A stretch of DNA of 64,000 nucleotides from Hyphomicrobiales bacterium (lineage in GTDB: Bacteria; Pseudomonadota; Alphaproteobacteria; Rhizobiales; Methyloligellaceae): NCBI GenBank assembly GCA_038326945.1, contig JBBQKN010000012.1, positions 8,111 through 72,110 on the forward strand, given 5' to 3'. Of the stretch, positions 2,564-27,600 are shown one piece after another. A program made the position numbers and the translations under genes. Under the pieces are notes generated by a model that saw nothing but the letters and a program-made list of their open reading frames with translations, did not search any database and was not told where the DNA came from. The first letter of the stretch is position 1, and each line of letters starts with the position of its first letter.

Positions 2564-3754
2564 CTAGGCCGTCGCTCTCGCCGGTTCCTGCATCTGTTTG
2601 TAGGCCGCAACAGCCTTGTCCGCCGCTTCCGCCAAGGTTTCTGCGGTGATCAGCTCAAGCCCGCTCTCGGCCAGGATCTTCCGGCCTTCCTCGACATTGG
2701 TTCCGGCGAGGCGGACCACCAGCGGCACCTTGACGTCCACGGTCTGGCAGGCCTGGACCACGCCCTTCGCCACCCAGTCGCAACGGTTGATGCCGGCGAA
2801 GATGTTGACGAGCACCGCCTGCACCTTCTGGTCCGATAGTACCAACTTGAGCGCCGTGGCGATGCGCTCCGGCGATGCGCCGCCCCCGACATCGAGGAAG
2901 TTCGCCGGGCTGCCGCCGGCATGCTTGATCATGTCCATGGTGGCCATGGCCAGTCCGGCGCCGTTGACGATGCAGCCGATCTCTCCGTCGAGGCCGATAT
3001 AGTTGAGGTTGTGCTCGGCGGCCTGCGCCTCGCGCGGATCCTGCTGCGAGGGATCGTGCATGTCGGCGACCTGATGGCGGCGGAACAGCGCGTTGTCGTC
3101 GAACGACATCTTGGCGTCGAGCGCCAGCACACGATCATCCTTGGTCACCACCAGCGGATTGATCTCGAGCATGATGGCGTCGCGGTCGCGGAAGGCGCGA
3201 TAGGCGTTCATGATCGTGGTCACCGCGCGCTGCACCTGCTTGATGTTGAGGCCAAGCTGGAAGGCGAGCTGGCGCGCCTGGAACGCCTGGAGGCCGACGG
3301 CGGGCTCGACCAGAACCTGGAGGATGGCTTCGGGCTCGGTGCGCGCCACTTCCTCGATCTCCATGCCGCCGCGCTTCGAGGCGATGACGCGAATGCGCTC
3401 GGTCTTACGGTCGAGCACATAGCCGAGATAGAGCTCGCGCTCGAACGGCTCGGCCACCTCGATATAGACCCGCTGCACGGGCTTGCCTTCGGGCCCCGTC
3501 TGGATCGTCACCAGACGCTTGCCGAGCAGATTTGCGGCTGCCTCGCGTACCTCGTGATAGGTCTTGCACAACTTGATGCCGCCCGCCTTGCCACGGGCCC
3601 CGGCATGGATCTGTGCCTTGACCGCCCAGTTCCAGCCGCCGAGCTCGGTGGCGGCATAGACCGCCTGGTCGGGGCTGAAAGCGACGGCGCCCTTCGGCAC
3701 CGGCACGCCGAATTGAGCAAGCAATTCCTTGGCTTGATACTCGTGAACGTCCAC
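2564..3754 (-). CDS. mtkA: Malate thiokinase large/beta subunit, SucC family
   Basis: [37 protein letters not shown] and NFLDVGGG; located between fch and mtkB. Confidence 0.9.
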
Positions 3755-25613: not shown

Positions 25614-26300
25614 GTGACGGAAGAGGAGCCGAAATCGAGGGGCAGATTTCGCGGCTTCGCCGGCGGCGTGCGGCTCCTTTTCGACGCACTCCTGGGAGTG
25701 GTGGTCCTGCTCGTTATCGGGTTTTTCCTCTTTGTCGACACCATCGAGCGCGAACAGCGCGACCCGGCGCGCTCCGCCGACGGCATCGCCGTCTTGACCG
25801 GGGGCGTCGCTCGCATCGACGAAGCGATGAAGCTGTTATCGCGCCAAAAGGCAAAGCGCCTCCTGATCACCGGCGTCAATCGCACCACCACGACGGAAGA
25901 GCTGAAGCAGCTCTCTAGCCAAGGCGACCAGTATTTCTCCTGCTGCGTCGATATCGACCACGAGGCGCGCAACACCATCGACAATGCCACCGAAACGAGC
26001 CAGTGGGTGGCGCGGCAGCACTATGATTCGATCATCGTCGTGACCTCGAACTACCACATGCCCCGCGCGCTCGCGGAGCTGGCGCGCGTCATGCCCGACG
26101 TGACGCTGATCCCCTATTCGGTCGTGGATAATAACGCCCATCTCGACCGGTGGTGGACCTACCCCGGGACCACTAGGCTTCTTCTCGGCGAATACATCAA
26201 ATATCTGCTTGCGCTCGGTCGCCTCGGCGCCACCCATTTCGTCGGCAAGTTCTTCTTGGGCGGAACGGCGATCGCGGTGCAGGATGCCTCCGAACCGTGA
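25614..26300 (+). CDS. YdcF/DUF218 family protein
   Basis: TM helix, IAVLTGG..RI, ARNTIDNA and VTSNYHMPRA. Confidence 0.88.
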   Translation: MTEEEPKSRGRFRGFAGGVRLLFDALLGVVVLLVIGFFLFVDTIEREQRDPARSADGIAVLTGGVARIDEAMKLLSRQKAKRLLITGVNRTTTTEELKQLSSQGDQYFSCCVDIDHEARNTIDNATETSQWVARQHYDSIIVVTSNYHMPRALAELARVMPDVTLIPYSVVDNNAHLDRWWTYPGTTRLLLGEYIKYLLALGRLGATHFVGKFFLGGTAIAVQDASEP

Positions 26301-27052
26301 CGGACGGCCTGGCCATGGCGCGTTCGCTTCTGTTCAACGCCCTCTTCTATGTGACCACCACGCTGTTCTTGGTGCTTGGCTCGCCGCTCTTGTTGGCGCC
26401 GAGGCGCTGGGCCATGGCCACGCTCGACCTGCATGCGCGGGTCGAGCTTTTTCTCCTGCGCGTCATCGTCGGCACGAAACTCGAGGTCCGTGGGGCCGGA
26501 AAGCTGCCCAAGGGAGCCTGCCTCGTCGCTTCTAAACATCAATCCGCCTGGGAGACCTTTGCCCTCATTCCGCTCTTCCGTGACCCGGTCTATCTGATGA
26601 AGCGCGAGCTGTTCTGGATCCCGTTCCATGGCTGGTTCTCCCGCAAATTCGAGATGATTCCCGTCGACCGGGATAAGGGAGCGAGCGCGCTTCGCCGCAT
26701 GCTGCGCGAAGCGAAGAAGCGGGTGGAGGCGGGGCGTGAGATCATCATCTTTCCCGAAGGCACGCGCCGCGCGCCGGGCGACCCGCCCAGCTACAAGACC
26801 GGCGTGTTTCTGCTGTATGAGGCCCTTGACGTTCCTTGCGTGCCGGTCGCACTCAATTCAGGGCTGTTCTGGCCGCGGCGAAGCATCGCCCGCCGCCCAG
26901 GCACCATCGTCGTGGAAATCCTCGATCCGATTCCTCCAGGTCTGGGCAAGGCCGAGTTCCTATGCCGACTGGAAACAGCCATCGAAAGCGCCACCAGCCG
27001 CCTCGTAGACGCGTCAAGGGCGGAAATTCTTCCCCCGGGCAGCAGCGATTAA
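26297..27052 (+). CDS. plsC: 1-acyl-sn-glycerol-3-phosphate acyltransferase
   Basis: KHQSAWET, FPEGTR and VPVALNSG. Confidence 0.88.
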   Translation: MTDGLAMARSLLFNALFYVTTTLFLVLGSPLLLAPRRWAMATLDLHARVELFLLRVIVGTKLEVRGAGKLPKGACLVASKHQSAWETFALIPLFRDPVYLMKRELFWIPFHGWFSRKFEMIPVDRDKGASALRRMLREAKKRVEAGREIIIFPEGTRRAPGDPPSYKTGVFLLYEALDVPCVPVALNSGLFWPRRSIARRPGTIVVEILDPIPPGLGKAEFLCRLETAIESATSRLVDASRAEILPPGSSD

Positions 27053-27064
27053 CCCTTCATTAAC
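27049..27064 (+). promoter_or_regulatory. CtrA binding box
   Basis: TTAA-CCCTTCA-TTAAC is an exact TTAA-N7-TTAAC match. Confidence 0.65.
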
Positions 27065-27083
27065 TCGATCCGAGCCAAGGTTC

Positions 27084-27100
27084 TGTTCTAGCTTTGTTCT
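27084..27100 (+). promoter_or_regulatory. Alphaproteobacterial LexA (SOS) box
   Basis: tGTTC-TAGCTTT-GTTCt is an exact GTTC-N7-GTTC match; an extra GTTC lies at 27080. Confidence 0.7.
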
Positions 27101-27186
27101 TGCGAATCGCCGCCACCCAGACTTGATTTTGTCATCGCGACGCCCATGTGACAGTCAGGTTCAAAGGTTAAGGCGGGAACGGGACC

Positions 27187-27600
27187 ATGTGGATGCACCA
27201 GTCAGATTTGACCAATGAAGCCCCGTGGGGGCCTCCGGACGAGCCCGCACTCATCTGCGCCGAGGCGACCTTCGCCCAGGCCTTCCATTATTGGCGCGGC
27301 GCTTCGAGCCGGCGCTACCTCCATAGCGTCTATACCCTGATCGGCTGCCCGGCGCTGCCTCGGGCCAACTACATCCTCGTCCGCCGCCACGACGACGGCA
27401 CGCGATCCCCCCTGATGTTCGGCCAGACCAAGGACGATGCCGTCACCTTGAATCTCGCCCATCTTCGCCATGAGGGCGCCAAGCTTGGGGCGAACGAGGT
27501 GCATATCCACCTCTTGGCCGAGACCCCCGAAGAACGGGGCAAGGTCGAGGCCGACCTGACAGAGGCGCATTTCCGCCACCGCGCCGCCAACGCGGCCTAG
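27187..27600 (+). CDS. Conserved-looking hypothetical protein, possible degenerate GIY-YIG fold
   Basis: WRGASSRRY..VY, ANYIL..LMFGQT, GANEVHIH and R..VEADL; upstream CtrA and LexA boxes support expression. Confidence 0.7.
   Translation: MWMHQSDLTNEAPWGPPDEPALICAEATFAQAFHYWRGASSRRYLHSVYTLIGCPALPRANYILVRRHDDGTRSPLMFGQTKDDAVTLNLAHLRHEGAKLGANEVHIHLLAETPEERGKVEADLTEAHFRHRAANAA

Follow-up and report, generated by a model that had tools for sequence, protein, structure and literature searches.

A LexA box, CtrA-type sites and a putative second, sigma-32-type promoter precede the gene of a conserved 137-residue protein in a Hyphomicrobiales genome

The SOS box of Caulobacter is tabulated as GTTCN7GTTC (da Rocha et al. 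2008, as given in PMC9578287). Predicted sites for CtrA and LexA were described together in promoters of Dinoroseobacter shibae and Rhodobacter capsulatus, at lexA and at genes related to the Tad pilus, flagella, cyclic di-GMP and the gene transfer agent (GTA) (PMC6473078). The rhizobial sigma-32 motif has the form cTTGaa-N16-CgATaT, and some of the RpoH1 and RpoH2 promoters of Rhizobium etli overlap or pair with SigA promoters (PMC4167512). Elements of all these kinds, that is an SOS box, a CtrA box and an RpoH promoter, were recognized here in one short intergenic gap of a Hyphomicrobiales bacterium (genome 2.92 Mb, 63% G+C). The window, meaning the whole stretch of DNA that was analysed, comprises 64,000 nucleotides (contig 12, positions 8111-72110). 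The gap of 134 bp separates the gene of a PlsC-like acyltransferase from the co-directional gene of a conserved 137-residue protein, the closest relatives of which are found in Methyloceanibacter. A preliminary description of this DNA had noticed perfect CtrA and LexA boxes in tandem and a further TTAACC half-site, all three inside the gap, and had proposed that DNA damage at a specific cell-cycle stage is the sole condition under which the downstream gene is expressed. The comparison with related loci points instead to a composite stress control region with two tandem promoters, in which a first promoter (P1) would be blocked by LexA and would receive a CtrA input in one genus, while a second one (P2) would act independently of LexA. 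This is the reading that we favour, with some but not high confidence.

The motifs lie exactly where the preliminary description had placed them (Table 1). The CtrA-type box reads TTAACCCTTCATTAAC, the LexA box reads GTTCTAGCTTTGTTC and the third element is GGTTAA, the reverse of TTAACC. Chance expectation was estimated from genomes simulated by a Markov-1 model, with both strands counted, and from 100 shuffles of the window. TTAA-N7-TTAAC has a single match in the window and none in any of the shuffles, while GTTC-N7-GTTC has two matches against 1.6 expected. Nowhere else in the 2.9 Mb genome do both perfect boxes occur within 80 bp of each other. A bare match to either motif is weak evidence, as it does not exceed chance, and conservation decides. 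Judged by alignment, the boxes are kept in orthologous promoters far above the background. Two sets of loci, which probably share species, were used for this purpose. The first contains orthologues from 21 of 24 same-genus genomes, giving 21 loci with upstream DNA, the own locus included. The second consists of 80 named loci, from which comparisons by clade were made between 26 Methyloceanibacter loci, 18 other loci of Methyloligellaceae type and 34 others.

The genome encodes lexA, recA, ctrA (425 bits, above the curated cut-off) and rpoH (380 bits). Its own lexA and recA promoters bear repeats of the GTTC-N7-GTTC type (GTTCTAGTTGTGTTC before lexA and GTTCGCAATATGTTC before recA), so the alphaproteobacterial SOS box is applicable in this genome. 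Upstream of the gene of the 137-residue protein, the box was perfect, in the same orientation and about 100 nucleotides before the ATG in all 21 loci of the first set. In the second set it was perfect in all 26 Methyloceanibacter and all four Methyloligella loci. Among the 19 loci L082-L100 it was perfect in 15, representing the four of Methyloligella and 11 of 15 others, the latter group being Methyloligellaceae, Hyphomicrobiaceae and unclassified Hyphomicrobiales genomes from metagenomes. Altogether 41 of the 45 loci L056-L100 carry the perfect box while their flanks diverge, and the background calculated from 61 sites in 2.9 Mb amounts to about 0.006 per 300 bp. The box is also present in three homologues of greater distance, which belong to other families of the order. 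Among the 80 named loci, no LexA box was found in the homologues of Hyphomicrobium type, which have at most 55% identity.

P1 is visible only through comparison with the relatives. Its degenerate -35 in the window takes the place of a TTGAC(N) hexamer in most of them, and its -10 lies inside the LexA box. A -10 of the form TAnnnT is enclosed by the box in 35 of the 41 LexA-positive loci, and a TTGA is present upstream of it at a spacing of 17-18 nucleotides in 30 of the 41. P1 therefore looks like a usual sigma-70 promoter whose -10 falls within the operator, a layout classic for repression, and because of this position LexA would be expected to block it. No terminator was detected on the plus strand of the gap by a terminator scan. 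These alignments lend strong support to the earlier proposal that LexA represses near the transcription start, since the box covers a conserved -10, is invariant in the Methyloceanibacter and Methyloligella orthologues examined and matches the lexA and recA operators. The gene is almost certainly switched on by DNA damage via LexA.

The CtrA-type elements showed a narrower distribution. The full site was perfect in 19 of 26 Methyloceanibacter loci, with one mismatch in three more, and in none of the 52 loci outside the genus. The half-site GTTAA[CT], situated 10-11 nucleotides upstream of the -35 hexamer, was found in 24 of 26 Methyloceanibacter loci against 0 of 18 other Methyloligellaceae-type loci and 1 of 34 others. 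The position of its partner differs by clade. In the clade of the window it is found downstream, directly against the -35, a second Methyloceanibacter clade has it one helical turn upstream, and a third has none. The N7 spacer is variable across the relatives and the TTAA halves are retained. The TAA stop codon of the plsC-like gene falls within the first TTAA of the box; this stop codon was considered as the cause of the TTAA conservation and was rejected, as neither its type nor its place is constant from species to species. Where a TTGA -35 is lacking, a TTAAC mostly abuts the -35 position, a pattern that would be expected if an activator offsets a weak -35, though the numbers are small.

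Two other elements near P1 and the gene are enriched in the same lineage. Of the 26 Methyloceanibacter loci, 14 have a GTTAA within -45 to -5 of the ATG, compared with 1 of 18 and 2 of 34 loci in the two other groups (genome background 0.25 per kb). For GANTC in the corresponding interval of 30 nucleotides, the counts in the three groups were 21 of 26, 4 of 18 and 2 of 34, where the background expectation is 0.06 per 30 nucleotides. The region upstream of ctrA itself contains TTAAGGGGCGGTAAAC, GTTAAC and TTAACCAT, as expected for an autoregulated ctrA. From these distributions a CtrA input gained within the genus is plausible and we lean slightly towards it, as an addition that does not define the regulation of the gene. 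CtrA control is weaker than had been claimed, as the full site belongs to one genus and about 70% of its species, and only the single half-site is near-invariant there.

Perfect TTAA-N7-TTAA boxes were also recorded elsewhere in the genome. Two of the four other intergenic ones (contig 8 at 77392, L050:3393, and contig 36 at 20872, L049:3373) are located 18 bp upstream of a GGDEF diguanylate cyclase gene and 77 bp upstream of a PopZ-like (DUF2497) gene, respectively. Both are plausible CtrA targets. One more perfect box lies inside the parB coding sequence and is read as chance.

None of these motifs forms the block that is conserved most widely in the gap. That block has the form CTTGAA-N15/16-CCCATnT, lies about 62 nucleotides before the ATG and had not been noticed in the preliminary description. 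In the window it consists of CTTGAT, a 16-nucleotide spacer and CCATGT (27144-27149), and it fits the rhizobial sigma-32 motif (PMC4167512). Of the 26 Methyloceanibacter loci, 23 keep this motif, here named P2, as do 10 of the 18 other loci of Methyloligellaceae type. Homologues in Hyphomicrobium have neither the LexA box nor P1 and carry a degenerate form of the block at the same distance from the gene, which suggests that P2 is able to serve alone as a promoter. The P2 pattern was matched six times in the genome, compared with 0-4 times in shuffles. Two of the remaining copies lie ahead of hsp20-DUF1150 and rpoD, and CTTGCG-N16-CCTATAT is present upstream of dnaK. Since about 23 bp separate the LexA box from the start of P2 on its downstream side, LexA should be no obstacle to transcription from P2. 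LexA-independent expression of the gene is thus likely on the basis of this arrangement, and P2 is probably a heat-shock promoter.

Some further features were observed around P2 and at related motifs. An inverted repeat TGTCA-N14-TGACA (27130-27153) brackets the -10 of P2 and reads CGTCA-N14-TGACG in relatives, with the outer base changed on both sides. It could be the operator of a further regulator or a weak RNA stem. An Rfam scan of the leader gave only a sub-threshold chance match to Guanidine-III (17 bits against a gathering score of 36). The groES copies of the genome (contig 31 at 13745 and contig 5 at 97288) possess inverted repeats resembling the controlling inverted repeat of chaperone expression (CIRCE), TTGGCACTC-N9-AGTGCTA, and no sigma-32-type motif, from which heat-shock control appears to be split between HrcA and RpoH. 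The sequence CTTGAT-N16-CCTATAT is present at 42308-42336 of contig 18 (L041, about 3309-3340), upstream of a radical S-adenosylmethionine gene (401 residues), and overlaps a GAAC-N7-GAAC. The latter is probably the CTTGAT...GTTC sequence itself, taken for a LexA box by chance.

The coordinates of all features are collected in Table 1.

Table 1. Features of the gap and its flanking genes, in positions of the window
Feature	Position	Strand	Basis or remark
PlsC-like acyltransferase gene, upstream, co-directional	26297-27052	+	Pfam PF01553 (1e-21); TIGR00530
CtrA-type full site, TTAA-N7-TTAAC	27049-27064	+	upstream half is the genus GTTAA(C/T) half-site; downstream half abuts the P1 -35
P1 -35 position	27065-27070	+	TCGATC, degenerate; TTGAC(N) in most relatives (alignment)
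LexA operator, alphaproteobacterial SOS box, GTTC-N7-GTTC direct repeat	27085-27099	+	conservation; lexA and recA boxes
P1 -10 hexamer, TAGCTT, inside the LexA box	27089-27094	+	alignments
GANTC (GAATC), CcrM methylation-type site, just 3' of the predicted P1 start	27104-27108	+	lineage enrichment
P2, putative promoter of sigma-32 (RpoH) type	27122-27149	+	CTTGAT 27122-27127, CCCATGT 27143-27149; genome matches and conservation
Third TTAAC-type half-site, GGTTAA, just 5' of the ribosome-binding region	27166-27171	-	lineage enrichment
Gene of the conserved 137-residue protein	27187-27600	+	no Pfam, NCBIfam, PHROGs or PADLOC match

In the mechanism that we infer from these comparisons, LexA would bind its operator and block P1 until RecA-stimulated cleavage of LexA follows DNA damage, and in Methyloligellaceae the gene would belong to the SOS regulon as a conserved component. 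In the genus Methyloceanibacter, P1 would have gained TTAAC-type CtrA half-sites beside or upstream of its -35, with the full site in the lineage of the window, and also a GANTC at the predicted start. Phosphorylated CtrA (CtrA~P), if bound there, would probably raise the output of P1, chiefly where the -35 has decayed as in the window. P2 would transcribe the gene in heat or proteotoxic stress regardless of LexA.

Several observations weigh against this composite control region and have to be considered along with the other explanations. In the whole genome GTTC-N7-GTTC occurs 61 times against 60-83 in the simulated genomes, and TTAA-N7-TTAA occurs 6 times against 1-3 simulated and 3.7 expected from base composition. 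Both bare patterns are thus near random expectation, as they would be if the motifs were chance matches without function. The retention of the LexA box in the orthologous promoters, at a fixed position and orientation over the -10, exceeds its background so far that this explanation is effectively refuted for the LexA box, and on the whole it deserves hardly any weight. The compared loci belong to related species and are not independent samples. A strict sigma-70 consensus scan of the plus strand of the gap returned no promoter, the -35 of P1 being degenerate in the window. About 30% of Methyloceanibacter species and all other genera lack the full CtrA site, which therefore seems dispensable for the basic regulation of the gene. 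The same absence, which extends to all the other genera retaining the LexA box, also speaks against a strict AND gate at a single promoter, where CtrA~P would be needed at the -35 and LexA would repress at the start. The geometry is compatible with such a gate. The full CtrA site abuts the degenerate -35 in the window and its closest relatives in a class-II-like arrangement, the LexA box lies over the -10, the conserved GANTC adds a second mark of cell-cycle type, and promoters with predicted CtrA and LexA sites have been described in D. shibae (PMC6473078). The conserved P2, however, provides a route that needs neither relief from LexA nor CtrA, and most relatives have a good TTGAC -35, with which P1 should work there without an activator. 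We consider the AND gate improbable, and the earlier statement that expression is confined to DNA damage at one particular stage of the cell cycle finds no support at a locus where a conserved sigma-32-type motif is situated downstream of the LexA box.

More serious is the possibility that the TTAAC-type elements are not CtrA sites. They might belong to another, genus-specific regulator that recognizes GTTAAC repeats, or be non-regulatory, and the promoter would then respond to SOS and heat shock. The single half-site is near-invariant while its partner is upstream, downstream or missing according to clade, no such element is found outside the genus where the LexA box and P2 persist, and perfect TTAA-N7-TTAA is rare in the genome and barely above chance, with one copy inside parB. 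Yet the match to the CtrA consensus is exact and includes the 3' C, the half-sites hold an 11-bp register while the spacer varies, and three TTAAC-type elements and a GANTC were gained together in one genus. CtrA is moreover present, and its own promoter shows the same types of motif. This explanation is possible but, on balance, doubtful. Rather less probable is that the block at 27122-27149 is not a promoter, so that all transcripts would start at P1. The bracketing inverted repeat (T/C)GTCA-N14-TGAC(A/G), whose outer base differs on either side from one species to another, suggests that the block could be a conserved element of the P1 5' untranslated region or another operator. Against this, the conserved letters are exactly those of a correctly spaced sigma-32 -35 and -10, the motif recurs before hsp20, rpoD and dnaK of the genome, and Hyphomicrobium, which lacks the LexA box and P1, keeps the degenerate block at the same distance from the gene. 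The composite region with P1 and P2 hence remains our preferred reading. On the evidence of the alignments the SOS promoter is real, a CtrA input is plausible and the AND gate is unsupported.

The gene itself appears to be a stand-alone transcription unit, as the next open reading frame is convergent. Its product belongs to a family of 610 clusters at 50% identity (E values up to 0.001). A second homologue search, run with a profile, yielded the same close relatives and no others. No match was obtained for the protein in Pfam, where 47 diverse family members were also without a match, nor in NCBIfam, PHROGs and PADLOC. A search of the family profile against the sequences of the PDB gave nothing meaningful at E values up to 10. 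The AlphaFold2 model has a mean predicted local distance difference test (pLDDT) score of 78, which is about 90 for residues 33-136, and consists of four strands, a helix, a strand and a helix. Comparison of this model with the PDB and BFVD by Foldseek returned nothing significant (best E value 0.4 in the PDB and 0.056 in BFVD, template modelling scores of at most 0.34). In an alignment of 55 sequences the residues W36, G38, R43, H46, L51, C54, P55, L88, N89, L90, A91, G101, A102, N103, E104, H106, H108 and D123 were invariant. The order of secondary structure in the model (hairpin, helix, strand, helix) is compatible with a GIY-YIG nuclease, a resemblance only. This assignment is not supported, with no Pfam match, no GIY-YIG chain in the PDB profile search and none among the Foldseek matches listed. 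A tentative suggestion, which we hold with low confidence, is that the protein founds an undescribed family of stress effectors with three inputs, namely DNA damage through LexA, heat or proteotoxic stress through sigma-32 and, in Methyloceanibacter, the cell cycle through CtrA and CcrM-type methylation. It might then be a metal-dependent enzyme using the invariant histidine, glutamate, aspartate and cysteine residues, or a checkpoint factor that connects DNA damage to cell-cycle progression in Hyphomicrobiales.

In two of the distant homologues (L031 and L033), a predicted promoter of the form TTG(A/C)CA-N17-TATATT lies inside GTTCTATATTTGTTC, and the ATG follows directly. With the LexA box immediately 5' of the ATG, a leaderless or very short-leader SOS transcript is suggested for these loci. 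In both of them the homologue is located directly after a gene whose product has a Cys-rich tail (…QEGC…C…CG…SKCG), possibly the C-terminus of a class II ribonucleotide reductase.

Perfect LexA-type boxes were also observed before other genes of the genome. One of them, GAACAAAATACGAAC, which has a T-rich spacer, on contig 1 near 21983 (L037:3984), is placed 126 bp upstream of the gene of a 1156-residue DnaE-type polymerase (L037:4124-7594). This gene comes after ATP-binding cassette transporter genes of MacB/FtsX-like type and could be the replicative dnaE or the SOS gene dnaE2. An SNase-like nuclease gene (310 residues; contig 6 near 57306, L039:3307) and a YkuD L,D-transpeptidase gene (217 residues; contig 2 near 27098, L038:3099) each have a box with a T-rich spacer about 50 bp before them, and these two genes are candidate members of the SOS regulon. 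A perfect box with a T-rich spacer also precedes dnaG. A genome-wide SOS regulon drawn from perfect boxes alone was rejected, because several matches are intragenic, as in the genes of leucyl-tRNA synthetase and topoisomerase I, and represent chance.

With this locus, the alphaproteobacterial SOS regulon would gain an uncharacterised but well-footprinted gene family. The gene also offers a view of regulatory turnover, as it is preceded by the sigma-32-type motif alone in Hyphomicrobium, by LexA control along with the sigma-32-type motif in Methyloligellaceae and by a LexA promoter alone in at least two other families, while one genus adds CtrA-type and GANTC marks. A caution follows for similar surveys. 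Perfect CtrA and LexA consensus matches occur near chance frequency in a GC-rich genome, and comparative footprinting alone sorts real sites from noise.

Among the known systems, the SOS promoters of Caulobacter crescentus and other alphaproteobacteria (PMC9578287) share with P1 an identical direct-repeat operator that overlaps the core promoter. The locus described here differs from them in its target, an uncharacterised family without a Pfam model, and in the added sigma-32-type promoter and genus-specific CtrA-type sites. A single small gene with both a sigma-32-type promoter and a sigma-70 promoter repressed by LexA was not described in the literature compared. P2 on its own, CTTGAT-N16-CCATGT, resembles the sigma-32 promoters of Rhizobium etli and also matches the hsp20, rpoD and dnaK promoters of the same genome. 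The promoters of Dinoroseobacter and Rhodobacter are alike in that the CtrA and the LexA motif types occur jointly at a single promoter, an arrangement that suggests an integration of cell-cycle or phosphorelay signals with SOS control. There, the genes concerned are those of motility, pili, GTA and signalling in Rhodobacterales and the sites were predicted by weight matrices, whereas here an uncharacterised protein of a Hyphomicrobiales methylotroph is concerned, both sites are perfect, and the CtrA part is confined to one genus.

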